Notes under the pieces: generated by a model
Seen by the model: the letters and a program-made list of their open reading frames with translations, nothing else
Told to the model about the DNA's origin: nothing
Databases searched by the model: none
Shown here: one piece after another, positions 7,936 through 44,309 of the stretch
Layout of the letters: each line of letters starts with the position of its first letter
How positions within the stretch are numbered: position 1 is the first letter of the stretch
Translations under genes and position numbers: made by a program
Origin: Parcubacteria group bacterium
GTDB lineage: Bacteria > Patescibacteriota > Minisyncoccia > Moranbacterales > UBA2206
Reading direction: 5' to 3'
NCBI GenBank assembly: GCA_041674205.1
Contig: JBAYWF010000001.1
Coordinates: 149,003 to 213,002 of the forward strand
Length of the DNA stretch: 64,000 nt

Positions 7936-7992
7936 TTGCGTGGTATATTTATAACATACCAGGGAATCATAGAGCCATGTTTAAAATGTGAT

Positions 7993-8128
7993 GATCCGCG
8001 CATCGGAATGATTTTTTGGTGAGTATATATTGGTCGCTTATGTGTGCGCGGGGAGCTGAATGGCGAAACCGGTTTAGACCGAAAAGTTTTTTTAAACTTT
8101 TCAGTTTGAGCCGGTTTTTTGTTTTTTG
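7993..8128 (+). promoter_or_regulatory. conserved structured leader element, copy B
   Basis: Same box1, box2, hairpin and T-tract as 1479-1610. It lies about 135 nt upstream of the TasA-like operon. Confidence 0.45.
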
Positions 8129-8260
8129 AAAACAACCTCATTTTAATATATTTAAAGGTCGAGGCGGAAACTGCCATAAGTTTCAAAATTTTTATTCCGA
8201 TTCATAAAATAGGAATAAAAAATAATTTTAATCAGCGCTTAATAAATAATAAAAAAAACT

Positions 8261-18588: not shown

Positions 18589-20877
18589 ATGCCTAAACAT
18601 AAAAAAAACCAGCAACGGGGCGGAGCCGATCGGCAAGCCGCAAACGCATCGGGATCCTTGCGTTTTTTTCCCGGATCTCAGATTGAAAAAACGGTCAAAC
18701 TGCTGCTTTGGTTGCTTCCGTTCGTTCCCCTGGCCAGCTGGAAATATTTTTTCTTTCCGTATATTTCAATCAAACTTTTCATAGTCTATATCCTGAGCGA
18801 GGCGGTCTTCGGTTTGTATCTGATTTTGTGTTTTTCGGATAGGAGTTATCTGCCGGATTTCCATTGCAAAGATGGGCAGGGCGGAAAAAGTAAAAATTGG
18901 ATTTTGATCAGTCTGGCGTCCTATATGGCGGTTTTGGTCCTGACTACCTTTTTTTCCGTGGACATTTCCAAAAGCTTTTTCGGCAGTATCAGTTCTATGA
19001 ACGGACTGCTGACCGTGCTGCATTTTTTCCTGCTGTTCGTGGTTTTTTCCCGGGCATTCATCGATCGGAAATTCTGGATTATTTTCTTTCGCGCCAATAT
19101 GCTCGTCGGAATTTTTATCTCCGTTTGCGCGCTGTTCCAAAAGATGGGCGGTTCGGCATCGCCGATGGTGACCTTTGGAAATCCGGCCTATCTTTCCGGT
19201 TATCTTGTTTTGATCATCTTCCAGGCGATGGCTTTGTTCTGGTGGGATAACCGGAATAATTGGAAAATAGCGCATCTGATCGCCGGAATCATCAGTATGT
19301 CGGTGGTATTCTTAGCTGTCGATATCCGCGGTTCGCAACTAGGTGTCGCAACCGGCTTGCTCGCGGCGGTTTTGCTATACGGCTTGGCGAATGAAAAAGA
19401 AATAATCAGGAAGGTTTTCCGCTGGACATTCCTGGCCGGATTGGTGATGGCGGTGGCGATTTCCTTTTATGCGATAAGTTCAGGCAAGATTTATTCTTTT
19501 TTTGGGCGGTCATATACCGTTAAAACCCGTCTGGTAGCTTGGGAATCAGGACTGCGCGGATTCGGCGACAAATTTTTGACCGGCTACGGCTTGGAAAATT
19601 ATACGGTGCCGTTTGAAAAATATTTCCAGCCGACCTATTACAACCAAGGCAGGGGCAGTGCCACGGAATTCGGTGCGGATTCCCCGCATAATAAGGTTAT
19701 CGAGGTGGCGGTTTCTAATGGGATTTTCGGCGTAGCGGCTTATTTAGGGATATTCGCGGCTGTTTTCCATCTGATTTATGCGCGATATCTGGTTTCGCGC
19801 CGGAAAATTTTTCTGGGCCTGGCCGGACTTTTCAGCGCTTATTTCGTGCATCTGCTCTTTATTTTTGATACGGTGTCCGCTTCCTTGCTATTTTTCCCAT
19901 CCCTGGCCTTTTTGATTTTCGTATCGTGCGGGGACGGGATCGGTTCGGCGGGAAAAGAAAAACAGACCGGACTGTCTTTCGGCAAAATGGCTTCTGTCGC
20001 TGGAGCCGTCGCGATAATTTTCTGTGTCGCGGCTTTCTATTTCGTCTGGAAACCGGCCAAGGCGGTCCGGTATGCCAACATTGCCATAAACTCAGCCAAG
20101 GCTGGAAAATATGCTGAAGCTGCGGATGGATTGGACAGCCTGCGTCGGGAAAATGTCTATGCGGTGGAAGAAAGCGCTATTTTGGAAATCGGCAAAATAA
20201 CCCAGATCAATTTTTTCAACAAAACCGATTTCACCGGGGATGACAAAAAATATTTTGAAAAAATAATCGGACTGGCGGAATATAATCTGCGGCGCAATCC
20301 GGACAATCTGCATTATTACATCGAATTGGCTTCGTTGTATGACCGGGCCGGCCGCTATGACCAGAGCTATTACGGGAAAAATATCGAGCTTTTGGAAAAG
20401 GACCTGCAAAAAGGCACTAAAAGGGTGGAGGCCTATATGATGTTGGCCGATGCTTATGGCGCGACCGGCAACCGGGCCAGGGCGGAAGAATTGGGCCGGG
20501 CCGGAGTGGCGCTGGATCCGACCTACGGCTACGGCTATTTCTTGCTGGGCAATATTTATTTTTACAGGCTGGATGACGCGGGCAAGGCCGATGAGAATTT
20601 CGAAAAAGCTTTCGAATACGGATATAAAAACGTGAATTCTTTGAAATCCTACGCGGATGTGAACGTGAAGACCGGCAACCTGCCTAAAGCTATTTTCGCT
20701 TTTGAAGAACTCATCAAGCTCAATCCAAAAGATCCGCAACAGTATGCCAATCTGGCCATGCTCTATCTGAGCAACAAAGACTACCAAAAGGCGCGGGATA
20801 TGGCGGAGAAAACCAAGCGGAAATTTCCCGGCACCCAGGCCCAGATCGACGCATTCCTAAAAATAATTCCCAAATAA
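18589..20877 (+). CDS. O-antigen ligase/polymerase-like (Wzy_C) membrane protein fused to C-terminal TPR repeats
   Basis: About 10 TM helices with Wzy_C-like periplasmic loop region, then about 250 aa of TPR-like repeats (YYIELASLY..., AYMMLADAY..., YANLAMLYL...). Confidence 0.6.
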   Translation: MPKHKKNQQRGGADRQAANASGSLRFFPGSQIEKTVKLLLWLLPFVPLASWKYFFFPYISIKLFIVYILSEAVFGLYLILCFSDRSYLPDFHCKDGQGGKSKNWILISLASYMAVLVLTTFFSVDISKSFFGSISSMNGLLTVLHFFLLFVVFSRAFIDRKFWIIFFRANMLVGIFISVCALFQKMGGSASPMVTFGNPAYLSGYLVLIIFQAMALFWWDNRNNWKIAHLIAGIISMSVVFLAVDIRGSQLGVATGLLAAVLLYGLANEKEIIRKVFRWTFLAGLVMAVAISFYAISSGKIYSFFGRSYTVKTRLVAWESGLRGFGDKFLTGYGLENYTVPFEKYFQPTYYNQGRGSATEFGADSPHNKVIEVAVSNGIFGVAAYLGIFAAVFHLIYARYLVSRRKIFLGLAGLFSAYFVHLLFIFDTVSASLLFFPSLAFLIFVSCGDGIGSAGKEKQTGLSFGKMASVAGAVAIIFCVAAFYFVWKPAKAVRYANIAINSAKAGKYAEAADGLDSLRRENVYAVEESAILEIGKITQINFFNKTDFTGDDKKYFEKIIGLAEYNLRRNPDNLHYYIELASLYDRAGRYDQSYYGKNIELLEKDLQKGTKRVEAYMMLADAYGATGNRARAEELGRAGVALDPTYGYGYFLLGNIYFYRLDDAGKADENFEKAFEYGYKNVNSLKSYADVNVKTGNLPKAIFAFEELIKLNPKDPQQYANLAMLYLSNKDYQKARDMAEKTKRKFPGTQAQIDAFLKIIPK

Positions 20878-22265
20878 TGTTTTATAACGATCGTTTGCTG
20901 ATGCGGAAAATAATCTTATTGGCAGGGGATGTTGCACTGTTTTTCTTCGCGCTTTTTTTAGCGCTTTCCATCAGGCAGCTGCGGCTGGTTCCGGCGGACT
21001 ATTATCAGATAAATCTGCAGGTTTTTTGGCCGATTTTCGCCATATCGGTCATCGTCTATTTCCTTTTTGATTTGTACAATATTAAAATGTTGCAGAAAAT
21101 TTACCGCTCGGTCTATTTTCTTTTTTTAGCGGTGGCAACCAATATTTTGCTAGCCGTTTCATTTTGGTATGCTTTCTATTCGGAAGCCGAAGTGACGCCG
21201 AAGACCGTGCTGTTGCTCTATGGGGTCTTGGTGTTTCTGTTGACGGTCGTCTGGCGCTTCCTCTATCACGACCTATTTTTCAATAACAGCAGATATCAAA
21301 AAAGGATCGTGATAGTCGGCGGGGAAGATCAAAGCGAAGAATTGCTGAAAATCGCCAATCCGCCGCAAGGCGCGGACTATAAAATCGTCGGCTATATCTC
21401 CCAAGCGGCCGGCCAAGACCAGGTGGCTTTCCAAAACATACCATGCCTGGGGAATTTCCATGATATCCAGAAAATCATCCGGGAGCATAAAGTGGGGGAA
21501 TTGATCGTGGCTTTCGACTATCGCCGCAACCGCGAATGTGTGAAAGAATTGTCCGACTCTTTGAATTTCGGAATTAAGATTTTTGAATGGCCGGTTTTTT
21601 TCGAACAGGTTTTTCAAAAAGTCCCCACCAATCAGATAGACCATTTTTGGTTCATCTATGGTTTGGGCGATGCGGATAGGAAGCTCTATGAAAGAATAAA
21701 GAGGTTGCTGGATATGCTGGTCGCGGCAGCCGGCCTGGTTTTTTTAGCGTGCGTTTTGCCTTTGATCGCGATTGCGGTAAAATCAACGTCGCCAGGCCCG
21801 ATTTTCTACCGGCAAAAAAGGATGGGATTCAACGGCCAGCTGTTCACTTTGATAAAATTCCGCACGATGGAAAATGGAGCCGAGAAAAATGGCGCGCAGT
21901 GGGCTTCCAAGAATGACGCCAGGGTGACGAAAATCGGCTGGTTCTTGCGCCGGACGCGCTTGGATGAAATCCCGCAGTTCGTGAACATCCTGAAAGGGGA
22001 GATGAGTTTGGTCGGACCGCGGCCGGAACGCCCTGAATTTTTAGAAACGTTGTCGGAAAAAATCCCGTTCTATTACAAAAGGAATATGGTCTTGCCGGGG
22101 CTGACCGGATTCGCCCAGATAATGTATCCCTATGCGGCGACCGTCGAAGACTCATTGGAAAAAGTCGGCTACGACCTCTACTACATCAAAAATCGCTCCT
22201 TTTTCCTGTATTTGAAAATAGTCTTGCTGACGGTGAGGACGGCGTTGTCTTTCAGCGGCCGGTAA
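20877..22265 (+). CDS. polyprenyl-phosphate glycosyl-1-phosphate transferase (WbaP/WcaJ/EpsL-like priming sugar transferase)
   Basis: N-terminal TMs, and a C-terminal catalytic domain with PGPIFYRQKRMG, LFTLIKFRTM, DEIPQF and SLVGPRPE motifs. Confidence 0.85.
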   Translation: MFYNDRLLMRKIILLAGDVALFFFALFLALSIRQLRLVPADYYQINLQVFWPIFAISVIVYFLFDLYNIKMLQKIYRSVYFLFLAVATNILLAVSFWYAFYSEAEVTPKTVLLLYGVLVFLLTVVWRFLYHDLFFNNSRYQKRIVIVGGEDQSEELLKIANPPQGADYKIVGYISQAAGQDQVAFQNIPCLGNFHDIQKIIREHKVGELIVAFDYRRNRECVKELSDSLNFGIKIFEWPVFFEQVFQKVPTNQIDHFWFIYGLGDADRKLYERIKRLLDMLVAAAGLVFLACVLPLIAIAVKSTSPGPIFYRQKRMGFNGQLFTLIKFRTMENGAEKNGAQWASKNDARVTKIGWFLRRTRLDEIPQFVNILKGEMSLVGPRPERPEFLETLSEKIPFYYKRNMVLPGLTGFAQIMYPYAATVEDSLEKVGYDLYYIKNRSFFLYLKIVLLTVRTALSFSGR

Positions 22266-22267
22266 TC

Positions 22268-23533
22268 CTATCTGAAAAATAATTCACCTAAAGAGATGTT
22301 TTGTTTTTGATTCAGTATCACCGAATATCTTAAATTAAAAAAGACGAAAAGCGATAAGGATAAGGCGATTCCGGTAAAAATAAATTTCCTCAAGACGGGG
22401 GATTTTATTTTTTCCTGGACGAACTTCACGCCATAAAAAGTGAAAAAAGCGGCGATGAGGTAGGTCAGCGGCCAGAGCAAAATAAGCGAACGAAAAGCGT
22501 AATAATTGACTGAAGAAAGCATTGTAAAGGTGAAGGCGGCTAAGAAGGCGGCTAATATCTTGTATTGCCCGTAGTATGCCAGCAGCAACATAAGCATCGG
22601 GAAAACGGCGACCGCCGACCAATGGGGGAATATGAATTTGAAATAATCCCTTTCAAGAAAAACTATTCCCGGAAAGATGCCTGGTCCGGCTACGTTCTCC
22701 CTTTGGTCTTGGAACGCATAACTCTCGCTTTTGATTATCTGGGCAGTCGATTCATTGGAAAGACGCGATGGTCCGTATGGATTATTTTTGTAATACATCG
22801 ATGGGATGATGTAGGCTAAAAATAACAAAAACAAGACGAACGCGGTTTTTTTGATGATTGTCCAGTCTATCTTTTTGGACAATAGGCTGTAAAAAAAACA
22901 AAAAGCGGCTAGGACAAAGGAGAAATATATCCCGATGGTATGCGAATAAACCATCGCGGGGACGGCTAATAGTGAAATTACTCCCCAATATTTGTTATCA
23001 TCGAGTATCAATGCGAACAGGAGCAGGAAAAGCAGCAATGCGAAGAAACTTGGAACGACCCAAAAAAAACCGTGATAAGTGCCGGCACCGTTAAACAGCG
23101 CCAGGAAAAATATCGATAGCGCCGTTAGATTTTTATTGTCGCTGAATTGTTTTACGAAATAAACCAAAACCGGTAGCAGTAGGATCGTTCCGATGTAAAA
23201 ATTCAGCTTGAATGCCTGGTAAGACGTTATATCGAGAATTTTTGCCAGCAAACCCAGCGGCAGCCTGTATGTCAGATGTTCCCAGAAAGCATATCTATCC
23301 GGCGTAAAGTTGCCTGTGCTGCAAAAAATTAAGCTGGGGCAATTTCTTACGGATTCGATGTGCCGTACATATGATGCGATGTCATCTGCCGATCCAGGGA
23401 CATTCAAGCCGTTGTTTAAAAAAATACCTATTAAAAAAAATTTCCAGGCGATGAAAAATATGACGGCCAGTATGATCCATTTGTTTCCATTGATAAACGA
23501 TCCCAGTTTCCCTTTTTCAAAATAAGTGTTCAT
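22268..23533 (-). CDS. polytopic membrane protein of glycan cluster (possible Wzy-like polymerase or GT-C)
   Basis: 421 aa with more than 10 TM helices. It is convergent with the WbaP-like gene and flanked by GT4 genes. Confidence 0.4.
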   Translation of the reverse strand: MNTYFEKGKLGSFINGNKWIILAVIFFIAWKFFLIGIFLNNGLNVPGSADDIASYVRHIESVRNCPSLIFCSTGNFTPDRYAFWEHLTYRLPLGLLAKILDITSYQAFKLNFYIGTILLLPVLVYFVKQFSDNKNLTALSIFFLALFNGAGTYHGFFWVVPSFFALLLFLLLFALILDDNKYWGVISLLAVPAMVYSHTIGIYFSFVLAAFCFFYSLLSKKIDWTIIKKTAFVLFLLFLAYIIPSMYYKNNPYGPSRLSNESTAQIIKSESYAFQDQRENVAGPGIFPGIVFLERDYFKFIFPHWSAVAVFPMLMLLLAYYGQYKILAAFLAAFTFTMLSSVNYYAFRSLILLWPLTYLIAAFFTFYGVKFVQEKIKSPVLRKFIFTGIALSLSLFVFFNLRYSVILNQKQNISLGELFFR

Positions 23534-24459
23534 AGTTTCTGTTTATTATAAATTTCGATGTATTGGGCGGTTATTCCGGTCCAAGAAAAATTTTGAGCAA
23601 GCTGGATGGCTTCCGCCCCGCCCCGCTCCCTTTCTTCCTTTGAGGCGATGAATTTTTTCAGGATTGCCTGGTAATCCGCATCGGTGCGGGCGATGTATCC
23701 CTCCGTCCGTCCGGTCAATATCTCTTCGATCGATCCGACGACATTGCTCACGACCGGCAAGCCGGAAGCCATCGCCTCAAGCACGGCCAGCGGTTGGTTA
23801 TCAAGCATCGAATAATAAGCGAATATGTCGATCCGGTTGAAAAGATCTTCTTTTTCGCAATAGCCTAAAAATTCAGTGTCGGCATGGATTTCCAAGATAG
23901 TTTTTTTATAGGCTTCAAAAAAAACCCCGTTGCCTCCGATGACGAGCGTCGCTTCGGGAAAAACGGCCTCGACTATCCGGGCGAGCCGTACGGTTCCGTC
24001 AGCTTTTTTTGGGAAATTGAAATTGGTCAGGATCCCTAGTTTGGGATTTTTCGGATCAAGGTCGTGGATCGCTTTGGGCGTTTCAGGAATATCTACGCCG
24101 TTGGGAATGACGATAGCTTTTTTAATGCCTAAGGTTTTTTTGAGGAAATTTGAAGGCGTGGTGACAAAATCGGCTTGCTTGATGATCAATGGAAAGAAAA
24201 ATCGGCCCAAATGTTTTTCGGCCTTGAAATTGCCATGGATAGTCAGGATATATTTTTTGCAAAGCAAGTTCGGCACCGGCACGCAAGAATGGACGATGTC
24301 GTAACGTCGGAACATCTGTTTGAAGTAGGCTTTCCTGCCCCAAATCACCGTGACGGCATAGCCGTTTTTTTGCAAATGCTTGGCTAAATTTTGCGCCCAA
24401 ACAAATGGTCCGCCTTGGGAGAATGTCACGATGAGGACGGTTTTTTTTGGGGATGGCAT
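23530..24459 (-). CDS. family-4 glycosyltransferase (GT-B, GT4)
   Basis: C-terminal GT-B signature LAVLEAMASGLPVVS with EX7E-like spacing. Confidence 0.8.
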   Translation of the reverse strand: MPSPKKTVLIVTFSQGGPFVWAQNLAKHLQKNGYAVTVIWGRKAYFKQMFRRYDIVHSCVPVPNLLCKKYILTIHGNFKAEKHLGRFFFPLIIKQADFVTTPSNFLKKTLGIKKAIVIPNGVDIPETPKAIHDLDPKNPKLGILTNFNFPKKADGTVRLARIVEAVFPEATLVIGGNGVFFEAYKKTILEIHADTEFLGYCEKEDLFNRIDIFAYYSMLDNQPLAVLEAMASGLPVVSNVVGSIEEILTGRTEGYIARTDADYQAILKKFIASKEERERGGAEAIQLAQNFSWTGITAQYIEIYNKQKL

Positions 24460-24569
24460 AAAAAGCTCGGTTACTTCATAATTACTTACTATTATACACT
24501 TTTTCGCTTTTTTCCGCCTCTGTTTCGTGATATATTTAGGATAGCTTATGGAAAATCGGCTTAAATCCT

Positions 24570-25691
24570 ATGAAAAAGGCAAAAATCCTCTATATCATCA
24601 CCCAATCCAGCTGGGGCGGGGCTCAGAAGTATGTTTTTGACTTGGCGAACGGCCTCAGGGGCGAATTTGAGGTGGCAGCGGCCTTCGGCGGCGAGGGAAG
24701 GCTGGCGGAGCGGTTGCGGTTGGCGGGTATCAGGACATATGGATTGAAAAACTTGGTGCGTGAGATATCTCCTTGGCGGGACTTTTTGGGATTGTGGGAG
24801 ATTTACCGCTTAATCAAAAAAGAACGGCCGGACATCGTGCACACCAATTCTTCCAAGGCGGAAATCTTGGGCAACATCGCGGCCTGGTTGGCCGGAGTCG
24901 AAAAAATCGTTTTCACGGCGCACGGTTTCGTTTTTAACGAGGATCTCGGTTTTTGGAAAAAGACCTTTTTTATTTTCTGGGAAAAGTTGGCCGGACTTTT
25001 CGCGGACAGGATAATTTGCGTGTCGGATTTCGATCGTGAATCAGCTTTGGAAAATAAAATAGCCTCGGCTGGAAAATTGCGTGTCATCCGCAACGGCATT
25101 GGGATCCCAGCGGAAAATCCAGCGCGTGTTGGAAGGGAAGATGGCAAAATCATCATCGGCACCATTGCCAATTTCTATCGCAACAAAGGCTTGGAATTTT
25201 TGGTCCAAGCGGCGGCGGAATTGAATGGAAAAATTCCCAATCTGGAATTTTGGGTGGCAGGCGATGGGGGTGAAAGGCGGAATATTGAAAAGGCCATAGA
25301 AAAACAACGATTGCCAAACTTCCAGTTGCTGGGTTTTCAAGAAAAACAATATGATTTTTTGCGGCAGTTGGACGTTTTTGTTTTGCCGTCGCTCAAGGAA
25401 GGTTTGCCATATGCGCTTCTGGAAGCGCTGTCGCTGGGCGTGCCGGCGGTAGCCAGCAAAGTCGGCGGGATTCCGGAGATAATAACTGATGGAGAAAACG
25501 GCTTTTTGGTGGAACCGAAAAATTCCAAGATGCTGGCGGAAAAAATCGGCCTTTTGCTCGGTAATGAAAGGCTGAAGACGGAATTTTCCCGGTTAGGACA
25601 GGAAAAAATCCGCACGGAATTCTCATTGGAGCGGATGTTGGAAAGGACCAAAAGGGTGTATAGAGAGTGTCGTGAAGAAGGCCAGTCGTGA
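24570..25691 (+). CDS. family-4 glycosyltransferase (GT-B, GT4)
   Basis: FVLPSLKEGLPYALLEALSLGVPAVASKVGGIPEII signature. Divergently transcribed from the previous GT4. Confidence 0.85.
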   Translation: MKKAKILYIITQSSWGGAQKYVFDLANGLRGEFEVAAAFGGEGRLAERLRLAGIRTYGLKNLVREISPWRDFLGLWEIYRLIKKERPDIVHTNSSKAEILGNIAAWLAGVEKIVFTAHGFVFNEDLGFWKKTFFIFWEKLAGLFADRIICVSDFDRESALENKIASAGKLRVIRNGIGIPAENPARVGREDGKIIIGTIANFYRNKGLEFLVQAAAELNGKIPNLEFWVAGDGGERRNIEKAIEKQRLPNFQLLGFQEKQYDFLRQLDVFVLPSLKEGLPYALLEALSLGVPAVASKVGGIPEIITDGENGFLVEPKNSKMLAEKIGLLLGNERLKTEFSRLGQEKIRTEFSLERMLERTKRVYRECREEGQS

Positions 25692-26810: not shown

Positions 26811-27278
26811 ATGTTGGACATCAAACCTTATCGCCAAAAGCCTGGATTTTGCGGTCCGTCTGCCTTGAAGATGGTGTTGGGTTTCTATGGTGTGGAGAAA
26901 AGCGAGGATGAATTGGGCTGTCTTACCAAGTGCGATCCGGACAAAGGCATTACCGGGTCAGCCATTGTCAAAGCGGCCGGGGAATTGGGTTTTGCCGGGT
27001 TTGTGAAAGATTCTGCCGAGCTGGAGGATATCCAGAAATTTTTAGACCAAAAGATACCTGTCATCGTGGAGTGGTTTTCGGAGGATGACGGGCACTATTC
27101 GGTGGTGGTGGAGATGGATAAGGAAAATATTTATTTGCAAGATCCGGAATTGGCCGGATTGCGGAAATTTGATTTGGAAACTTTCAGGAGGGTCTGGTTC
27201 ACCTTCGGCGGTGAATTTATGCGGACTAAAGACGACCTGATCTTGCGCCGGATGGTCGTAATTGAAAAGAAAGGTTAA
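26811..27278 (+). CDS. standalone C39-like cysteine peptidase domain protein
   Basis: RQKPGFCGPSALKMVLGFYG matches the C39 Gln/Cys N-terminal block (Q...DCG.A.L.M...YG). DGHYSVVVEMDKENIYLQDP matches the C39 His block (gHfVV......v.i.DP). Confidence 0.6.
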   Translation: MLDIKPYRQKPGFCGPSALKMVLGFYGVEKSEDELGCLTKCDPDKGITGSAIVKAAGELGFAGFVKDSAELEDIQKFLDQKIPVIVEWFSEDDGHYSVVVEMDKENIYLQDPELAGLRKFDLETFRRVWFTFGGEFMRTKDDLILRRMVVIEKKG

Positions 27279-27536
27279 AATCCGTTGTTTTTGGGATAGC
27301 GTCCGAAGTTGTCGTTCCTGTGAGCGGCTTTTTCGTATTGGTTGGCGCATCCCTTCCGGGTCGATCGGATAGATCCGTGGTATTTTACCGCGACAGGCGA
27401 AAAATCGGCAAAATTCTTCGGTTTATTTCCATTATCTTTAAATTATGGGATAATTGTTTATGCTGTTTGTAATATGTTAAAACGGAACGGATCGAATGTT
27501 GTTTAAAAATCAACCAAGTTGAAGGTAGGAGGCAGT

Positions 27537-27914
27537 ATGGTGTTTATGGAGATTGTCTATCGGAAACCGCAAAGCGGGAAGAAAAGATCGGGAAAAAAAC
27601 GTGGTCCGGTAACGAAGTGGGGAGTTAATCCTTGCCTCCTGTGCCAGATAAAACTGACGCAGGAGGAGGAGCGTACAAGGATAACGGCGCATCCTTATTG
27701 CGCCCTCCTGAGATGTAAGGAAGTTTTTGAAGCGCATGGGATGAGGATCCCGTCGCAGAGAAACGCGGACGCTTTCCTGAAATATGTTCTTTTTCAAATC
27801 GATATTTCGGAAGAAACCGAAGAGATATTGGAGGCGGCCTTTTTCTTCTTGAGCGCTGCGCGTCCGTTTTTCGCCTTCAACCGTCTTCGCCGAGAAGCGG
27901 AGGCGTTCGGATAG
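27537..27914 (+). CDS. hypothetical small basic protein with Cys/His cluster
   Basis: AGGAGG RBS 4 nt upstream of the ATG at 27537. A hairpin plus T-tract terminator lies at 27927-27972. Residues CLLC...HPYC...C suggest a possible Zn site. It sits in an otherwise ORF-poor 690-nt gap. Confidence 0.4.
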   Translation: MVFMEIVYRKPQSGKKRSGKKRGPVTKWGVNPCLLCQIKLTQEEERTRITAHPYCALLRCKEVFEAHGMRIPSQRNADAFLKYVLFQIDISEETEEILEAAFFFLSAARPFFAFNRLRREAEAFG

Positions 27915-27968
27915 GGTTATATCCGCGCCGAGTCTGTCCATTCAACCGCAATGGACAGGCTCGCTTTT

Positions 27969-30560
27969 TTATGGCGCGTAAGTAGTGTTTTTTTCAAAAA
28001 CCAGATATCTCACGTCGGCGTCTTTTTGTGATTTGTCCTGGAAGTAGCGGGTGGCGACGTATTTGTTTTCCAAGTTTTGGTTGCCGATGATTTTTCCGCC
28101 AGAATCTTTTTCGGGAAGCAGTTTTTTCAGCGCTTCCTGGAATCCGAAGAAGTCTTTTTGCACATCGAAACGCAGGACAATCGTTTCGTCGCCGATCAGC
28201 GCGTCGAGATTTCCATAGTCTTGCGCCATCGCCGCAAGCTCCGGATAACTTCTGGCGTCTTCTTTTTCTTTGCCTTCATCGCGGAAAGAATAATCCTTGT
28301 TGGCTTTTTGATCAAGCGTTATGTTGATGACCGGTTCGCCGGTTCCTTGCAAATCCGGCACGATTCCGTCGATGACGAACCCGTATTTTTCCACATAAGC
28401 CGTTCCGACCGCGATGCGCGGGGAAGTGGTGGCGCGGATGACGTTCTTTTTCGCTTTGTCTTGGATGATTTTTTCAAGCATTTCAGTCCCGATTTTGAGA
28501 CCGTGCAGATCCTTGGAAACCCCGAAGGAACTGGCGAAAAGTTCGTTCTCGCCGAGCCGCGCGAATTTCATAAACGCGATCAATTCGCCTTGGTATTTGA
28601 GCGCGTAGCATTCGAACCGTTCCGGATTTTCCAACAGATCCGCTTCCAGTTTTTCTCCGGCATAAACGCCGGCGAGGGCGGGGACTTGCCCGAGCCAATT
28701 TTCCCGCGTCATCGCGACCGCTTTGCGCGCGTCCTCCTCGTCCAACCCCTCTCCGAACCCCGAAACCTCCAAATCCAAATCCCGGATCATCTCAAAATCG
28801 ATTTCCTGTCCGGATTGTTTGAGGGATTTGAGGAAAGAAGAAAGCAGAATTATTTCCGTCCGTTTTGATTTGAGCTTTTCAATCAGTTCCGCTATGTCGT
28901 TTTCGCTCGCACCGCTCCGGATGTTTTCCGAAAATTCAATGATTATGGTGCGGGCTTCTTCGAGTAGTTGCAACTTTAGCAGATGCCCCATATCGGAATC
29001 AACGTCTTTCGTGATGATTTTTTCCAGAGATCCAGCTTCTTTTTCAGATAGATCGATTATCTGGGAAACTCTTTCAAAAATTTCGGCGGCCTTATCGGGA
29101 GAAATTTTTTCTCCTATGTTCAAAATTTTCCGGCTGTCTTGCAAATCGAATTCACAGATTAAAAATGCTTTCAATCCGTCCAGCTTATAATTTTCCGCGA
29201 ATGAATATAACCTATCTAGCTCGCCGGAAAAACCCAAGTCATACGCGGCAGCGGCCAACCATTGTTGTTCATGCCAAGTGATATTATGTATGCCTGTTCC
29301 GGTTTTTGCCGCAAAATCTCGGGAAATTTTTTGGATAAAGTCATAATTCGTAATAGATCTCAATCTTTTCGCATAATCTTCCGGGCTTTCTTCTTTTCTT
29401 TGCGGATTTTCTTGTGTGATGTCCCATGGCGCAGTCCGGGATAATGTTTCGTCCCTGTCTAATAGCATATAGGCAGTTACCCTGAAGTTGTCCGGCATTT
29501 TTTTCTCCGCCATAATCTTTTGCCTTCTTTGCGTTTTTTCTTCATCGTCCAAAAGGTCGATGACATATTTCACTTCCTTGTAGTTTCCATTATTGGCTAT
29601 GATTCCCGCTTTGCCTTTTTCCAATATAACTATCGTTATGTTTTCCGCAGGTATTCCTTTAAGAAGTGGCAATCCCAGCGCCTTTTTGCCGATAGGATAG
29701 CGCACGCCTTCAAGCCGGACATCGTAATCTATTTCGGACAAGTAAATTTCTTTCCTTTGGACTTCACTGCCTTTTTTCGTCGTCGCCAAATTGAAATCTT
29801 CAAGCTGGACAAGTCCGCTAGCCAGAAGGTTTTTGCATTGGGATGCGAGCGTTTTGTGCGGATTCTGGCTGAAAGACTCTTTGCCTTCGCCAAGATTGCC
29901 GATGAGTTTCTTTGTCCGTTGGGCAGTTAACTTTACAAAACTATTTTTTTCTTCGTCAAAGATCATTAGATTCCCATTTTCATCCCTATATCCTTGATGG
30001 GTTCTGAGTATTTCAGTCGCCAGGGCCATTTCTTTTGCTCCGATTTCTTCACCGTTTTTCGTTTTGATTTTGTAATCCCACTTGCCTTTAATACTTGTTT
30101 TGCCGGGAGCATCATATTGATTCCAATAATTCAAATAATATTTTTTGTCTTTTACAGAATCAATATCGAAAGCCTCTTCCTTGTTTGCAGGAATATTAAA
30201 CAAGGGGATTGCTTCCGGAATAGGAAGATTGTTTTGTATGGCGTTATCAAAGTCTTTTTTTGATACGATAGGAAATTCTCCCAATTGTTCAAAAAACAAT
30301 TGATAAACATTAGAGCATTTATTTTTTTCCAACGAAATCCCTTTTTCCGCATAACTATTTTTGGAAACAAGGAGGGCGGAAAATTTTTCCAAATCCAAAA
30401 TAGGAATCCCTTCATGGAATTCCATTATCCCATTTTCTTGCAGGATTTCCAGAACCTTCTCCTTTGTCTCCTCACGCTCCTGATTTTTTTCCGGGGTAAG
30501 TATTTTCGGATCGGAAGTCCCGGGATTTGGCATAAAAGGCTCGCGCATCATATATTTCAT
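27969..30560 (-). CDS. large (863 aa) cytoplasmic hypothetical protein with C-terminal GNAT-like acetyltransferase domain
   Basis: No TM or signal. Residues about 640-740 show a GNAT-like core (YALKYQGELIAFMKF..., VSKDLHGLKIGTEMLEKII = motif A-like R/QxxGxG/A, then YVEKYGFV). The N-terminal 600 aa are unassigned. Confidence 0.55.
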   Translation of the reverse strand: MKYMMREPFMPNPGTSDPKILTPEKNQEREETKEKVLEILQENGIMEFHEGIPILDLEKFSALLVSKNSYAEKGISLEKNKCSNVYQLFFEQLGEFPIVSKKDFDNAIQNNLPIPEAIPLFNIPANKEEAFDIDSVKDKKYYLNYWNQYDAPGKTSIKGKWDYKIKTKNGEEIGAKEMALATEILRTHQGYRDENGNLMIFDEEKNSFVKLTAQRTKKLIGNLGEGKESFSQNPHKTLASQCKNLLASGLVQLEDFNLATTKKGSEVQRKEIYLSEIDYDVRLEGVRYPIGKKALGLPLLKGIPAENITIVILEKGKAGIIANNGNYKEVKYVIDLLDDEEKTQRRQKIMAEKKMPDNFRVTAYMLLDRDETLSRTAPWDITQENPQRKEESPEDYAKRLRSITNYDFIQKISRDFAAKTGTGIHNITWHEQQWLAAAAYDLGFSGELDRLYSFAENYKLDGLKAFLICEFDLQDSRKILNIGEKISPDKAAEIFERVSQIIDLSEKEAGSLEKIITKDVDSDMGHLLKLQLLEEARTIIIEFSENIRSGASENDIAELIEKLKSKRTEIILLSSFLKSLKQSGQEIDFEMIRDLDLEVSGFGEGLDEEDARKAVAMTRENWLGQVPALAGVYAGEKLEADLLENPERFECYALKYQGELIAFMKFARLGENELFASSFGVSKDLHGLKIGTEMLEKIIQDKAKKNVIRATTSPRIAVGTAYVEKYGFVIDGIVPDLQGTGEPVINITLDQKANKDYSFRDEGKEKEDARSYPELAAMAQDYGNLDALIGDETIVLRFDVQKDFFGFQEALKKLLPEKDSGGKIIGNQNLENKYVATRYFQDKSQKDADVRYLVFEKNTTYAP

Positions 30561-30815: not shown

Positions 30816-31319
30816 TCACCACTCAAGAATAAATTTTGATGGTGCCAACTTTTCGTCCGCCAGGGAGTTTTTGATTAGGAATTCTTTTTTTCCGTCATGA
30901 GACCGGATCGTATAAAGTCCCAACCAAACCAACTCAAAAACTTCCTGGTGTTGGTTTTCTGGAACCACCTCCTTCAGTTTGTTTTTGAAAACACTTTCAG
31001 TAATGCCGAGACAGGGTATCATGGGATCGATACTATCAGTCTCTTCGAGGGCTTTTTTATAAAAACTCTCGAAAAGTTGCAGATCTGCCCACTCATAGTT
31101 TGTCTCCGCTGGAGTGTCAGCGTCAAAAGGCTCAAATACTCCGAGGGCTTGCACTACCTCTTTTCTGCCACAAAATTTCCTTCTTCTCTTAAAATATAAA
31201 TACCAAGAAGAAGGATTTTCCGGAGCCTGCTCAAGCCTTGCTGAAACAAATGCCCTTCGTTTTGGCATATTATTAAATGCCTTGACTGCTTCAAGAATAG
31301 CCTCTTCATAGTTTTTCAT
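30816..31319 (-). CDS. hypothetical protein (cassette gene 3)
   Basis: 167 aa, with an AGGAGG RBS on the minus strand (ccctccttg on +). Confidence 0.45.
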   Translation of the reverse strand: MKNYEEAILEAVKAFNNMPKRRAFVSARLEQAPENPSSWYLYFKRRRKFCGRKEVVQALGVFEPFDADTPAETNYEWADLQLFESFYKKALEETDSIDPMIPCLGITESVFKNKLKEVVPENQHQEVFELVWLGLYTIRSHDGKKEFLIKNSLADEKLAPSKFILEW

Positions 31320-31350
31320 GGCTGCACCCTCCTTGTTCTTGTTTTTAAGA

Positions 31351-31426
31351 GTACTTCTGAAAATTTATATTTCAATAATATAAACTTTATTGAAGGGGCA
31401 AGCGGTCGGATGACGCGCTTGCCCAT
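31351..31426. repeat. 76-nt intergenic repeat, copy 2: terminator hairpin (gggcaagcg/cgcttgccc) plus AT-rich inverted repeat (ttcaataa/ttattgaa), continuing into a conserved RBS region
   Basis: About 89% identical to 31861-31936. The stem is conserved while the loop differs. Confidence 0.6.
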
Positions 31427-31428
31427 AG

Positions 31429-31836
31429 CTAGATGATTTCACTAACTATATCAACATGTTCAAAATCATACTCCCAAGTTAATCTGCAGTCATTGCATAC
31501 ACAGCTCATTTTTCTAAAAGTGGACTGTATTTTTTTGAGCAGTTTTTTTCCGATTTTACTTTGTGCGTCGATAAAGACACCTGCCTTGGCTTCAACTTCT
31601 ATCTCGTGATATATGTGAGATATAGTCAATCCGCTCATTAGTGTGCATTCCTCCGGATCATCGCTGATCTTACAACTCTCTCTGCACACTCTGCAGGTGA
31701 GGGTGGGGTCATCAAAGACACGCTCTTCGATGCAAATTGGCACCGAGTAGAGGGTTTTCCCAACTTTGATTCCCACCACCCTGTTTATGGAGTGATATTG
31801 CTCTGTTATAATAGGGGATATCTCTGTTTTATTCAT
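31429..31836 (-). CDS. hypothetical Cys-rich small protein (cassette gene 2), possible zinc-finger/ribbon
   Basis: 135 aa with CRVCRESC and CVCNDC pairs. AGGAGG RBS on the minus strand. Confidence 0.45.
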   Translation of the reverse strand: MNKTEISPIITEQYHSINRVVGIKVGKTLYSVPICIEERVFDDPTLTCRVCRESCKISDDPEECTLMSGLTISHIYHEIEVEAKAGVFIDAQSKIGKKLLKKIQSTFRKMSCVCNDCRLTWEYDFEHVDIVSEII

Positions 31837-31860
31837 GGTTCCTCCTAGGTTTTTTTGAAG

Positions 31861-31936
31861 GTACTTCTAAGAGTTTATATTTCAATAATATAAACTTTAT
31901 TGAAGGGGCAAGCGATCAAATGACACGCTTGCCCAT
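31861..31936. repeat. 76-nt intergenic repeat, copy 1
   Basis: Repeat of 31351-31426. A third, diverged copy (AT-rich tttcaata motif plus agcgaac/gttcgct hairpin) lies at about 30740-30806. Confidence 0.6.
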
Positions 31937-31941
31937 ACCCT

Positions 31942-32577
31942 CTAGCCTAGTGACCAGTAAGACAAGAAGTCCTTATCGGCTGTGGCATCAGCATACCAAG
32001 CCGATAGTTCCGGAATGGTGACTTTTTTCTCGTCATACTCTTCAGACGAGAAAAAAACATACCAAGGAAAAAGATATTGTTCGTCCTCTTTGATGGAGGA
32101 TAAACAACGTCTACGCTCTTTGTTAAGCGGGGTCAACCTATGATAGGGAATTTTTTCAATTATTCCCTCATATGCTGAAGGCATCTCAATTCCACTTTCA
32201 TGCGCGCCAATTACAATCATCGCGTAGCAATCAAGTATAAAAAATGCCATTGACACCAGTAATTGGTTTTTTTGTTCGAGACTTTTAACCATCTCGACCA
32301 CGATTTTTGCGTTTTCATCATCGCGGTCAAAATTGCATCCCAGTTCGTTTCCACTAAGATCGAATGTCACGCCTGATCCTAAAACCTCAACTGCCATTTC
32401 GACTCCGCGAATAATTCGCGGGGTGATTTTTGCGGGCATTATTGAAGATACCTCATTAAATCTGGCTTCGTCGCACGCCCCTATAATGTGTTCAAAACCT
32501 ATTGAACACAAAAAGGATTCTTGTTTGGACATTTTGTTTAAAAATGACACCAACCGTTTGATTCTTCTCTTATTCAT
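31942..32577 (-). CDS. hypothetical protein (cassette gene 1)
   Basis: 211-aa ORF. I recognise no family. Confidence 0.45.
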   Translation of the reverse strand: MNKRRIKRLVSFLNKMSKQESFLCSIGFEHIIGACDEARFNEVSSIMPAKITPRIIRGVEMAVEVLGSGVTFDLSGNELGCNFDRDDENAKIVVEMVKSLEQKNQLLVSMAFFILDCYAMIVIGAHESGIEMPSAYEGIIEKIPYHRLTPLNKERRRCLSSIKEDEQYLFPWYVFFSSEEYDEKKVTIPELSAWYADATADKDFLSYWSLG

Positions 32578-32799
32578 GGTTTTCTCCTGTCAGGGATTGA
32601 TTTTAAAAGAACTTTTGTCAAGTCTGCCCGCCTTGGGAGGAATCTATCTTTTTTGCTCTCTCATCTTGACTTGGCAGTATAGCATAATGGGAGCGGAATG
32701 TCAATAACAAAAAGCACAAAAATGGCTAATTTGTCATAATTTTGCTAACAAAAAGAAATAATTTGGCTTGGTTTCGTTTGCAAAGTGTCATATCCAAAA

Positions 32800-32829
32800 T
32801 TGACACAATCTTCAAAATCTGCTAAAATA
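32800..32829 (+). promoter_or_regulatory. sigma-70-like promoter (TTGACA-18-TAAAAT) for the TrmB-family regulator gene
   Basis: TTGACA at 32800-32805 and TAAAAT at 32824-32829. Confidence 0.4.
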
Positions 32830-32861
32830 ACAGCAGGATTAACTTTGTAAAGACAGCGGAT

Positions 32862-33617
32862 ATGGAAAATAGCATATTTTTAGCAGCCGGATTGACCCAG
32901 GCGCAAGGGGAAGTGCTGGACTTCCTGTTGGAAAACGGGGAGTGCCGGGCCAGTTTCATCACCCGCCGGATCAACCGTCCCCGGGGCGTGGTCTATAAAG
33001 TGCTGGATGATTTGGAAAAGATGGGGCTGGCGAAGCGCAAGGATCTGGCGGACAGCGTGGGCGTCTATGTTTCCGAACATCCGGCGAAAATCGAGGAATT
33101 GTTCGAACGGAAAGCGCGGGAATTGGAGCGGCAGAGGCGGATTTTTTCCCAGGTGTTGCCGGATTTGGTTTCTTCCTACAACCTGTCCAGCGACAAACCG
33201 GACATCAGGTTTCTGGAAGGCAATGAGGGGATCAGGACCGTAATCGAGGATACCCTCAAAAGCCAGGGGGAGATCCGCACGTTCATCGATATGGAGGCGC
33301 TCGAATCGGATCCGGAACTGGTGGAGATAAACCGGGAATATGTCAAAAAAAGGGTGAAGACCAACACCCGGAAAAAGATGATCGTCCCGGAATCGGACCG
33401 GAAATATTTCAAGGATTACGACACCTCTATGACCGAAGTGCGGTTTTTGAAAGGGGACGCCTATCCGTTCAAGTCCGGTATGCAGATATATGGCAACAAG
33501 GTGTCTTTCCAAACCATCGACAAGGGCAAGCGGATCGCGGTCATCATCGAAGACAAAAATATCTGCGAAATGCACAAATTGCTTTTCGAATATATCTGGA
33601 AAACGCTGGAAACGTAG
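32862..33617 (+). CDS. TrmB-family (sugar-responsive) transcriptional regulator
   Basis: N-terminal winged-HTH LTQAQGEVLDFLLENGECRASFITRRINRPRGVVYKVLDDLEKMGLAKR, typical of TrmB, plus a C-terminal effector domain. Confidence 0.75.
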   Translation: MENSIFLAAGLTQAQGEVLDFLLENGECRASFITRRINRPRGVVYKVLDDLEKMGLAKRKDLADSVGVYVSEHPAKIEELFERKARELERQRRIFSQVLPDLVSSYNLSSDKPDIRFLEGNEGIRTVIEDTLKSQGEIRTFIDMEALESDPELVEINREYVKKRVKTNTRKKMIVPESDRKYFKDYDTSMTEVRFLKGDAYPFKSGMQIYGNKVSFQTIDKGKRIAVIIEDKNICEMHKLLFEYIWKTLET

Positions 33618-41306: not shown

Positions 41307-44300
41307 GTGCCAAAAACAAATAAAAACATACTGCTGGTATTTTGTCTGGCCCTTGGTTTGGTTTTTTCTTGCGAGGGAGCCAGTGCCAGAGAAACCATAA
41401 ATATCAATACCGACACGACCTGGACCAAGGAAACTTCTGATCTGGTTTTTGACAAGCCGATTGCCATTGGAAATGGTGCGACCTTGACCATCGAGAAAGG
41501 TACGAGGGTGGTTTTCCAAGTTAATCCCAACCAGCCTTTCAACTCTGCGGGGTTCGAGGTACTTGACGGGAAACTGGTCGCGAACGGGACGCGCGAGGAA
41601 AATATCGTATTCACTTCGCCGGACGACGGTTTCAAGCTGCTTTTTAGCGATAATGATCAGCCTTCTTTTTTGCTCTATGTGACCCTGGAAAACGGCGGTT
41701 TCATTCCGACTATGGAAGGCAGCGGCGATTTCGTGCCGAAATTTCCGGTTTTTGAAATCAACGGTGGCAAGGTCCATATCGAGAATTCCCAGTTTGCCAA
41801 TAGCCGGTTCAGGGAAATAAGTATTTCAGATGTTCCAATCCAGGATGCGGAAGGCAACGATGTGTATGATGAAAATGATAATCTTGTGCAAAACAAAGCC
41901 CAAGTGGATGTCATAAATTCCAATTTTTCCAACCAAAATGCCGTGGATTCCCAACTGGATTGCTGGGCGTATGATGAAGAAGCGGATGAAGATTATGTGG
42001 ATCAGGATTGTCTCAAACGGGTGAATTTGAAAGATGATTGGTTTGGGAATCCGGCCGGACCGACGACTGATGAGGATGAAGAACAAGGGATTGTAAAAGG
42101 CTATCGGGTAACCGGACAATTTTATCTGGATTCTTGGCGGACGGCTGATGAGATAATTGATGCCAGTCAAAATTGCATGGAAAATTGTTTTTCCAACGTG
42201 CTTTTTTTGCCAGGCATCAAAACCAGCCGGCTGTATAGAGATGGAGATGATGGAAAGAAGGATAAATTGTGGTTGCCTGATTATTTTGAGGATGATCTGG
42301 AAAAATTAGCACTGGATGAAAACGGGAAAAGCGTTAATGAAGTATATACACAGGACGTTTTGGATAGCATCGGTATTTGGGGGATTGGCGGTGATATTTA
42401 CAAAAATTTCATAGATATTCTGGCTGAATTGAAAACTAAGAATACGATCAATGATTATGAATCCTTTGCTTATGACTGGCGTCAAAGTGTGGAAGATGTG
42501 GCACAGAACGGAACTCCGTATGAAAATATAACGAAATCGGCGATAGTCGATTTGCAGGCGCTGGCAGAGAATTCTAAAAGTAAAAAAGTGACCATCGTGG
42601 CCCATTCCAATGGCGGCTTGGTAGCTAAAGCAGTGATGATGGAGCTGGAAAAATTAGGAATGGCTGACAAGGTGGACAAGGTTATCCTTGTTGGCACTCC
42701 GCAGATGGGGACGCCAATCTCGATCCTTTCGCTTCTGTATGGCTATGATGAAGAATCAACCTTTCTGCAAGTGTTGATTTCGCGGGAAGATGCCCGCGCT
42801 TTAGCGGAAAATATGCCTGGAGCCTACGGGCTTTTGCCGGGTGAAAAATATTTTGAGCGTATGGAAAGTCCGTTCATCAAATTTTCATCCGAAAATACCC
42901 GATACAAAAGTTTCAAGGACGCATATGGTGAAAACATCGACAATTTTGATGAATTCAGGAAATTTTTGCTTGGGAAAGATGATGGCCGAGAAGACCCCGA
43001 CAAAAGCGATGTTGAAATGGAGAATGTGTTAAATGAAAAAATATTGAACCAGGCTAGGGAAATCCATCAGCATTTGGATAATTGGGTGCCACCATCAACA
43101 GTCGAAGTTATTCAAATTGCCGGTTGGGGGTTGGATACGATAAGCGGAGTGGAATATACAGAAAAAGAAAAAACCCAATGTTATATCGCTCCCGGAGCTA
43201 AAATCCCATCTTGTTCCGGTATGGGAGAATATGAGTCGGTTTATGAACCGAAATTCACCGTGGATGGCGACAGGGTGGTGGTGGCGCCAAGCGCTTTGAT
43301 GTTGGCCGAGTCAGAAAATGTAAAGAGATATTGGGTGGATTTATATGGGTATAATGATAATAATGTTCCAGATAGAGAACATAAAAATATTACAGAGATA
43401 GAATCAGTAAGAAATGTATTGGATATGTTGATTAGAAATTTAGATTTATCTTCAAATTTGCCTGAGTTTATTAAGTCTTCACGTCCAGATGATTATGCCT
43501 ATGCCCAACCTCGTTTAAGGATGTCCCTGTATTCACCTTTGGACATCCATCTATATGATGATTTCGGTCATCATACCGGACCTAAAAAAAACACGGATGA
43601 AAACGGGCAAGAATACGTGATTTTTGAAAAAGAAATTCCGAATAGCTATTATTATCAGTTCGGAGAACGGAAATATGCCGGCTTCCCTAAAGGTGAACAT
43701 ATCCGCGTAGAAATGGATGGCTATGCCCTGGGTTCATACACTCTAAAATTAGAAGAAGCGAAAGTGACTGAAGCAGGCGAAGAAACAATCGCACAAACGG
43801 CTTTTGAAAATCTTCCAACTACGGCTGACACGACCGTAAAGCTGGAGATTCCGGAAACCGGCATCGAAAATCCATTGTCTTTGCAGGCCGACATCGACAG
43901 CGATGGCGCGGTTGAATATGAATTGGCTTCTGTTCAAGATGGCGCAGTTACCTTGGATGTGATCGCTCCCGTTGCAGAAATTTCCATAGCTGGCACAAAG
44001 AGTAATAAAGAAGAATCAAAAACCGAAACGATCAGAATTGACAAAGCCACGTTGGAAGCCAACGTGCAGTTTAATCCGGATACGCAAAAAACGGATATCA
44101 GCGGTGCTGATAACCTGACCCAGGTTTCGGTTGTGCCAGAAGAACAAATAGGTGATAATAGCCATAAGTCAAAAAACAAAATATATTCCTGGCTTTCAAA
44201 ATTGTTCTTGGGAAAACAGGATAGGATCACTACGGTAGTCGCTACTTTAATGATGGCAACGATGACAGTGATCGGCGTCCGGTTCGTAAAAAAATGGATG

Positions 44301-44309
44301 GGATGGTGA
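41307..44309 (+). CDS. large secreted, C-terminally anchored protein with beta-helix-like N-domain and alpha/beta-hydrolase (lipase/PGAP1-like) domain
   Basis: Signal peptide (LVFCLALGLVFSCEG). N-terminal parallel-beta-helix-like repeats. Central VTIVAHSNGGLVAKAV (GxSxG nucleophile elbow) ... ILVGTPQMGTP. C-terminal TM anchor TTVVATLMMATMTVIGV. Confidence 0.6.
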   Translation: MPKTNKNILLVFCLALGLVFSCEGASARETININTDTTWTKETSDLVFDKPIAIGNGATLTIEKGTRVVFQVNPNQPFNSAGFEVLDGKLVANGTREENIVFTSPDDGFKLLFSDNDQPSFLLYVTLENGGFIPTMEGSGDFVPKFPVFEINGGKVHIENSQFANSRFREISISDVPIQDAEGNDVYDENDNLVQNKAQVDVINSNFSNQNAVDSQLDCWAYDEEADEDYVDQDCLKRVNLKDDWFGNPAGPTTDEDEEQGIVKGYRVTGQFYLDSWRTADEIIDASQNCMENCFSNVLFLPGIKTSRLYRDGDDGKKDKLWLPDYFEDDLEKLALDENGKSVNEVYTQDVLDSIGIWGIGGDIYKNFIDILAELKTKNTINDYESFAYDWRQSVEDVAQNGTPYENITKSAIVDLQALAENSKSKKVTIVAHSNGGLVAKAVMMELEKLGMADKVDKVILVGTPQMGTPISILSLLYGYDEESTFLQVLISREDARALAENMPGAYGLLPGEKYFERMESPFIKFSSENTRYKSFKDAYGENIDNFDEFRKFLLGKDDGREDPDKSDVEMENVLNEKILNQAREIHQHLDNWVPPSTVEVIQIAGWGLDTISGVEYTEKEKTQCYIAPGAKIPSCSGMGEYESVYEPKFTVDGDRVVVAPSALMLAESENVKRYWVDLYGYNDNNVPDREHKNITEIESVRNVLDMLIRNLDLSSNLPEFIKSSRPDDYAYAQPRLRMSLYSPLDIHLYDDFGHHTGPKKNTDENGQEYVIFEKEIPNSYYYQFGERKYAGFPKGEHIRVEMDGYALGSYTLKLEEAKVTEAGEETIAQTAFENLPTTADTTVKLEIPETGIENPLSLQADIDSDGAVEYELASVQDGAVTLDVIAPVAEISIAGTKSNKEESKTETIRIDKATLEANVQFNPDTQKTDISGADNLTQVSVVPEEQIGDNSHKSKNKIYSWLSKLFLGKQDRITTVVATLMMATMTVIGVRFVKKWMGW

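Follow-up and report, generated by a model that had tools for sequence, protein, structure and literature searches.

A family of large GNAT-domain proteins in Patescibacteria and its linkage to a TrmB-like gene

Introduction

What is the role of a cytoplasmic protein of 863 amino acids (aa) in which an acetyltransferase-like segment is the only familiar part? This question is raised by a gene at positions 27969-30560 in a 64,000-nucleotide stretch of DNA from a Parcubacteria group bacterium (assembly GCA_041674205.1, contig JBAYWF010000001.1, positions 149,003 to 213,002), the whole of which is called the window in the following. A first-pass annotation, which was made from the DNA letters alone, had placed a GNAT-like domain at about residues 640-740 of the product, left the remainder unassigned and suggested a role as a toxin or as the effector of an array of small genes upstream. 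We have followed up this annotation by family, structure and synteny comparisons, and describe a large protein family with a GNAT domain and a conserved neighbouring gene for a TrmB-type winged helix-turn-helix (wHTH) protein.

Results

The gene is an unbroken open reading frame (ORF) with an ATG start, 863 codons and a stop codon at 27969-27971, as taken from the ORF list and the translation, and it lies on the minus strand, which the first-pass annotation had not stated. The product is the same in sequence as protein P0001 of an NCBI metagenome-assembled genome (MAG), whose annotation is 3 aa shorter. We searched 1.84 billion cluster representatives with an HMMER profile and obtained 1,786 matches at E ≤ 1e-3 and 906 at E ≤ 1e-30, and the window protein itself scored 834 bits with the family hidden Markov model (HMM). 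Because of these profile-matched representatives and of full-length homologues with 31-58% identity, the ORF is, judged by sequence comparison, a real gene. Most of the representatives have lengths of 750-1000 aa and align from one end to the other, and many others matched only profile positions ~388-849 and differ in their N-terminal ~400 residues. Since the helical, GNAT and C-terminal part is shared alone by so many representatives, it constitutes the core of the family. A word-indexed search returned 7 clusters, and the same 7 were recovered with a 70-sequence alignment and likewise with a Falkowbacteria query. Where names were given for the sources, the proteins were listed as "hypothetical", "GNAT family" or "RimI-like" and came from MAGs of Moranbacteria, Falkowbacteria, Parcubacteria and Patescibacteria; as far as these names go, the family is restricted to the Candidate Phyla Radiation (CPR)/Patescibacteria. 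No homologue of the 863-aa protein was detected in phage and plasmid collections by tblastn, no paralogue elsewhere in the window by the family HMM, and no paper describing the family or a fixed pairing of a giant GNAT with a TrmB-like protein in CPR by literature searches. At locus L011, two adjacent ORFs (5881-7470 and 7474-8238) take the place of a single big gene, representing either a pseudogene with a frameshift or stop or an assembly error.

The first-pass annotation had rightly described the product as rich in lysine and glutamate (E 10.3%, K 10.0%); its isoelectric point (pI) is ~5.1. Analyzing the protein in 19-residue Kyte-Doolittle windows, we detected neither a transmembrane segment nor a hydrophobic N-terminus, and the highest mean was only 1.44, at aa 295; therefore, the protein is soluble and cytoplasmic, as had been proposed. 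With pI values of 4.8-7.9, all of its domains are acidic or neutral, a property that disfavours the binding of RNA or DNA.

Three independent lines of analysis, namely Pfam, a profile search of the PDB and structure prediction with AlphaFold2 (AF2) followed by Foldseek, confirmed a predicted GNAT acetyltransferase domain in the C-terminal half of the protein, at about aa 596-755 (28296-28775, minus strand). The Pfam family PF00583 (Acetyltransf_1) matched aa 642-710 with 27.3 bits against a gathering cut-off of 20.7 and also matched 23 of 40 family members; a GNAT domain went undetected by Pfam in some members (P0014, P0026, P0035, P0064 and P0066). The family profile, made from 70 sequences, was compared with all PDB sequences and matched GNAT-type acetyltransferases only, with E values of 3e-10 for Ta0821, 1.4e-8 for streptothricin acetyltransferase, 2e-7 for Naa10, 4e-7 for Ard1 and 8e-5 for Naa50. 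The AF2 model of aa 597-749 displays the canonical order of GNAT elements (b1-a1-a2-b2-b3-b4-a3-b5-a4-b6-b7), and Foldseek against the PDB gave 123 matches at E ≤ 1e-3, all 50 listed ones being GNAT acetyltransferases with a probability of 1.00. AAC(6')-Ii (5e96) came out on top with an E value of 5.8e-6 and 20% identity, and Ard1 (4pv6), GCN5 and PaiA were also present. The earlier assignment to the GNAT fold was thus upheld by all three methods, whereas the extent given for it was too narrow for the structural domain.

The string LHGLKIGTEML, in which the first-pass annotation had seen a likeness to motif A, corresponds to aa 685-695. Family columns place motif A, which binds the pyrophosphate of acetyl-CoA (canonically Q/R-x-x-G-x-G/A), at HGLKIG, aa 686-691 (28488-28505, minus strand). 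It is canonical in the family, with R, Q or K at the first position in 120 and G or A at the last in 144 of 145 members (686: R66/Q31/K23/H6; 687: G105; 689: A34/G27/S26/K21; 691: G135/A9). The window copy reads H-G-L-K-I-G, where H and K are minority residues and the last glycine alone is canonical. Motif B, Y-x-x-x-x-G-F, is near-invariant (Y722 in 134/145, F728 in 135/145), and the tyrosine of strand beta-4 (column 675) is kept in 119 of the 145 members. In an HMM alignment with Naa50, the score of which reproduces that of the PDB match, this column aligns with Tyr73, and the equivalent of His112 is not conserved in the family.

The first-pass annotation had also called the rest of the protein unplaceable, and some 600 residues indeed stayed without a match in libraries or fold searches. 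When Foldseek was applied part by part, as had been proposed there, the GNAT domain matched as described above, and the AF2 model of aa 1-595 had no counterpart in the PDB or among the viral models of BFVD; the same residues matched nothing in Pfam, NCBIfam, PADLOC, PHROGs or PDB sequences. The AF2 secondary structure delimits an N-terminal module of a long helix, a beta-hairpin and short helices at aa 25-115 (30216-30488, minus strand), which is present in two to three copies in some members and duplicated in L012, L016, L019, L021 and L023/L025. It weakly resembles aa ~188-251 of its own protein (hhalign P 0.003), and its counterpart in P0062 gave a sub-threshold match to HTH_Crp_2. Kinship of this module with the wHTH of the partner protein was considered and rejected (hhalign probability 2%).

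The module is followed by an alpha/beta region at aa 116-392 (29385-30215, minus strand), for which columns were counted over ~110-135 members. Its most conserved polar residues are P124, E177, R192, D255, G291, G319 and E391, with P124 kept in 111/112, R192 in 115/118 and D255 in 121/123 sequences. The next domain, aa 393-595 (28776-29384, minus strand), is all-helical, with the AF2 helices forming a bundle of long helices over aa 393-582. It carries the signatures GIGIHNLSWREQ(Q)WL, present in the window protein as GTGIHNITWHEQQWL at aa 421-435, and YGLxGLKxFL, and its conserved columns include Q432 (145/150), E431 (121/150) and F466 (139/152). Overall, 92-99% of the members retain P124, R192, D255, E391, R399 and Q432, a degree of conservation above that of most residues of the GNAT domain. 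Behind the latter, the AF2 model contains a small alpha/beta domain at aa 756-863 (27972-28295, minus strand) that matches no known family and has the conserved strands Y-x-x-T-R-Y/F and R-Y-x-V-F-E-K (T837 in 79/101, R838 in 85/101). Compared with the 58%-identical orthologue P0002, the window protein shows 63-69% identity in the N-terminal region vs. 40% in the GNAT and C-terminal parts.

Pfam analysis of 58 members recognized GNAT alone, plus sub-threshold matches to HEAT_2 and HTH_Crp_2. The first-pass annotation had allowed for a known housekeeping family; the family found here is large, and it is best filed as a family of cytoplasmic proteins of ~750-1250 aa without description in Pfam, NCBIfam or PDB, representing a new architecture within the GNAT superfamily, in which N-terminal helix-hairpin module(s), alpha/beta region, helical domain, GNAT and small C-terminal domain follow each other.

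The second constant feature of these loci is the partner gene, which codes in the window for a 251-aa TrmB-type winged-helix protein (32862-33617, plus strand; PF01978, 35.2 bits against a cut-off of 25.6). The protein consists of a wHTH at aa 10-60 and a C-terminal domain of ~170 aa. A TrmB/MarR-type wHTH scored above the Pfam cut-off in 13/13 partner orthologues. The C-terminal ~170 aa matched no Pfam family, no PDB sequence and no TrmB sugar-binding domain, and TrmB of T. litoralis aligns with the partner across the wHTH only. Among the distinct loci with enough flanking DNA for assessment, 15 of 16 have a TrmB-like orthologue adjoining the big gene, which makes the linkage near-invariable. 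The orthologues are 28-47% identical, and the linked loci include L025 from Falkowbacteria (23% identity), L031 from Patescibacteria, L033 without a Pfam-detectable GNAT and the paralogue in L028, which occurs in Moranbacteria assemblies. The other neighbours (PolI, Fpg, DnaN, YchF, glycosyltransferases, PMT) differ among the loci. The two genes are usually oriented tail-to-tail with their 3' ends 0-50 nt apart or overlapping, and in four lineages (window, L004, L011, L018) they are divergent with 2-3 kb of lineage-specific, unrelated ORFs between them, so the linkage survives the switch from the convergent to the divergent orientation.

Two paralogues of the big protein, P0003 and P0024, are present in the groundwater bin ACD_15C. 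The second of them, of 749 aa (L028 6001-8250), is followed 1 nt downstream by its own TrmB-like gene (8252-9016); therefore, the two genes appear to be duplicated together.

In the window, a sequence scan located a divergent promoter region at 32578-32861, containing a minus-strand promoter at 32704-32676 (TTGACA-17-TATACT, 11/12, with TG) and a plus-strand promoter at 32800-32828 (TTGACA-17-TGCTAAAAT, 11/12, with TG). The layout TTGACA-N17-TGCTATAMT, which has a near-consensus extended -10 element, precedes the TrmB-like gene in 13/15 loci, appearing as TTGACA-N17-TGCTATAAT or TTGACA-N17-TGCTATACT in the window, L001, L005, L012, L020, L025, L028, L031 and others. Counting k-mers upstream of the big gene and of the TrmB-like gene in search of a shared operator yielded only A/T-rich words and the sigma-70 pattern TTGACA-N17-TGCTATAAT.

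As seen already in the first-pass annotation, the big gene terminates a gene array: it is the last of four minus-strand genes (31942-32577, 31429-31836, 30816-31319 and 27969-30560, coding for 211, 135, 167 and 863 aa), which are transcribed away from the divergent TrmB-like gene. The three small genes (30816-32577, minus strand) are lineage-specific and lie outside the conserved module. In a BLAST search of all loci compared, the only homologues came from the closest Moranbacteria relative (L004/L007/L013); they are 50-65% identical, differ in their order and are accompanied by two more small genes. None of the three products matched Pfam, PADLOC or PHROGs. They look like lineage-specific passengers. 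At L018, the spacer between the TrmB-like and the big gene harbours an ORF6N/Rha-type gene typical of mobile elements (3028-3582, minus strand; PF10543, E 4e-33). Because the gap between the divergent genes is filled with unrelated lineage-specific ORFs, this one included, its content suggests an insertion-prone site.

Two of the small products have features of their own. The 211-aa protein has a short stretch, aa 142-182, that aligns with positions 127-165 of the NCBIfam profile (560 positions) of Csx30, a CRISPR-associated protein of type III-E, with an E value of 5.7e-12 and 45 bits against a cut-off of 125 bits; it matched no PDB sequence, and no other CRISPR-related gene was noticed near 31942-32577. 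The 135-aa protein is 65% identical to the product of L004 4202-4609; its eight cysteines are arranged in CxxC-like pairs, which would fit a zinc ribbon.

Downstream of the big gene, a 125-aa ORF (27537-27914, plus strand) runs convergently to it. An AGGAGG ribosome-binding site lies 5 nt ahead of this ORF, which contains a CxxC...HxxC pattern and matches no Pfam family; an overlapping minus-strand ORF of 143 aa (27510-27941) is probably spurious. Between the two convergent genes, a terminator scan and the sequence revealed a hairpin with a 14-bp stem (27929-27963), with a T-run on the plus-strand side only. Further away, the window contains a stand-alone C39-type cysteine peptidase domain of 155 aa (26811-27278, plus strand; PF03412, E 1e-14) without the usual fused ABC transporter, and a 1000-aa ORF (41307-44309, plus strand) whose one recognisable domain is an LCAT/PGAP1-like alpha/beta-hydrolase (lipase) core at aa ~360-630. 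An exopolysaccharide-type cluster lies upstream of the locus (18589-25691), comprising GT4 glycosyltransferases, a 762-aa TPR/O-antigen-ligase-like membrane protein and a polyprenyl glycosylphosphotransferase (TIGR03025, E 2e-114). Searches of the window for Rfam families and tRNAs gave no matches.

Discussion

Among known systems, the bacterial protein lysine acetyltransferases of the Pat/PatZ (YfiQ) type may serve as the nearest working parallel, although the likeness fails in their defining feature. These are cytoplasmic proteins of ~880 aa in which a very large N-terminal part, regulatory or substrate-binding, precedes a GNAT domain using acetyl-CoA, and thus resemble the window protein in size and domain order. 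In contrast, Pfam recognises their N-terminal region as an acyl-CoA-synthetase-like module of the NDP-forming type, and neither the window protein nor the 58 members contain its defining domains (CoA-binding, ATP-grasp_5, succinyl-CoA-ligase-like) according to Pfam and NCBIfam. Pat also lacks a TrmB-like partner gene, and the C-terminal domain is an addition of the window family. By sequence profile, the GNAT core is nearest to Naa10, Ard1 and Naa50, and the combination of a GNAT with a large, partly helical non-catalytic mass recalls NatA, in which the catalytic Naa10 is joined by the large helical auxiliary protein Naa15. Unlike NatA, the window protein is a single polypeptide, and no TPR repeats were detected; it differs from Naa50 by the missing conservation of His112 and by a Phe at the position of Tyr73 in the window copy, and no NCBIfam RimI/NAT model matched it. 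The similarity to AAC(6') enzymes is confined to the fold level, since no curated NCBIfam AAC(6') model was matched. The partner in turn shares with TrmB-family regulators the type of wHTH and differs from them in its C-terminal domain.

We propose, with about even confidence, that the protein is an acetyl-CoA-dependent acetyltransferase which has a large conserved N-terminal platform for substrate binding or regulation and is coupled to the TrmB-like partner. The family proteins would act as N-acetyltransferases, and their N-terminal ~600 residues would either select or present the substrate or sense a signal. The partner may control the big gene or be the target or recruiter of the enzyme. 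A protein substrate is our leading guess, because the GNAT core is nearest to the protein N-alpha/N-epsilon acetyltransferases Naa10, Ard1 and Naa50 and shares, in most of the family, the tyrosine position of Naa50 Tyr73, because the platform in front of it is of large size and well conserved, and because the domains are acidic or neutral. Nothing so far demonstrates an unusual mechanism.

Several observations weigh against this proposal. Similarity of a GNAT core predicts the substrate poorly, and the top Foldseek match is an aminoglycoside acetyltransferase. The AF2 models, built from a 7-sequence alignment, are of moderate confidence (pLDDT 70 for the full length and 73 for aa 1-595), and the N-terminal fold is possibly a distant relative of a known one, as Foldseek covered the PDB and BFVD. 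Two convergent genes, the usual layout, do not form an operon, and their coupling may thus be a matter of regulation alone or even of position; a member with an alternative N-terminus (L032) has no TrmB-like partner, and k-mer counting ahead of the big gene revealed no operator-like word in common. Finally, the window copy carries F675, S677, G680 and H686 in place of the Y, G, N and R/Q/K of the family. These four atypical residues, at some of the best conserved GNAT positions, may weaken or alter its activity. The same four substitutions occur in the closest relative, P0003, and not in P0002.

These substitutions also bear on a rather unlikely alternative, according to which the N-terminal and helical domains carry out the main function, acting as a new enzyme or a scaffold, and the GNAT domain is an accessory that is degenerate here or serves as an acetyl-CoA sensor. 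It would account for the loss of Y675, G677, N680 and R686 in the window copy, for the better conservation of P124, R192, D255 and Q432 than of Y675, for the members without a Pfam GNAT match and for the faster divergence of the GNAT region from P0002. Yet the window copy keeps G691, Y722, G727, F728 and the complete GNAT fold, as judged from family columns and the AF2 model, and it shares its substitutions with P0003 at 74% identity across the domain, suggesting continued selection; moreover, many active GNATs have no dedicated catalytic base. Somewhat less unlikely, and still well short of probable, is an acetyltransferase for small molecules such as antibiotics, polyamines or amino-sugars, with the TrmB-like protein as a ligand-sensing transcription factor and the N-terminal region binding or oligomerising. 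The Foldseek matches to AAC(6')-Ii and other small-molecule GNATs and the profile match to streptothricin acetyltransferase are consistent with it, and TrmB regulators classically sense sugars. However, a typical GNAT acting on small molecules has a single domain and 150-200 aa, the NCBIfam resistance and AAC models were unmatched, the C-terminal domain of the partner matches no TrmB sugar-binding domain, and the strongly conserved 600-aa extension would be left unexplained.

An RNA or tRNA acetyltransferase, similar to TmcA/NAT10 or to tRNA-acetylating GNATs, is improbable. Such an enzyme could be a large multidomain protein with the GNAT in its C-terminal half, and some loci have neighbours related to translation or RNA (Sua5 and a SpoU methylase in L033, TsaE in L001, YchF in L004), but these are inconsistent among the loci, and the pI values of the domains argue against it. 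Neither a RecD-like helicase nor GNAT_acetyltr_2 or a tRNA-binding domain was detected by Pfam or NCBIfam, and Foldseek found no P-loop ATPase. The role suggested in the first-pass annotation, a GNAT toxin or the effector of the upstream small-gene cassette in a toxin-antitoxin, defence or conflict system, appears to us the least probable of all and is largely excluded by the comparative context. GNAT toxins exist (PMC9177977), and TacT, AtaT, KacT and ItaT share with the window protein the GNAT fold, the use of acetyl-CoA and an adjoining gene for a DNA-binding protein; the position at the end of a four-gene unit with three uncharacterised small proteins and the short Csx30-like stretch in one of these would also fit. 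These toxins are, in contrast, single-domain proteins of ~170 aa, co-transcribed with a ribbon-helix-helix (RHH)/DUF1778 antitoxin and often mobile, whereas the 863-aa protein far exceeds their size and its family has conserved chromosomal contexts, usually with a convergent wHTH gene of the TrmB type. Pfam detected no DUF1778/RHH protein among the neighbours, PADLOC and PHROGs gave nothing relevant for the 863-aa protein and seven neighbours, and phage or plasmid homologues were absent from the collections searched. The small genes are confined to the closest relative, in a different order and in a spacer of varying content, and what is conserved across the family is a context of housekeeping genes and the TrmB-like gene, which speaks against an effector of the small-gene array.

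Returning to the acetyltransferase coupled to a TrmB-like partner, the constant presence of the latter provides a testable handle, namely whether the enzyme acetylates, binds or obeys the regulator. A bolder version, which we regard as a long shot, is a CPR-wide two-gene switch in which the enzyme reads acetyl-CoA or another signal via new N-terminal folds and then acetylates its DNA-binding partner, or in which the partner recruits the enzyme to acetylate nucleoid or transcription proteins. If true, bacteria would have a counterpart of transcription control by acetyltransferases, in which enzyme and regulator are duplicated within genomes as matched pairs. Should the first 600 residues prove to be new folds with a conserved site of their own, the family would enlarge the known repertoire of protein domains. 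The CPR/Patescibacteria are a huge and barely cultured group with tiny genomes, and a large protein kept there is likely to be important for their biology; the family could reveal a regulatory acetylation system specific to symbionts with reduced genomes.

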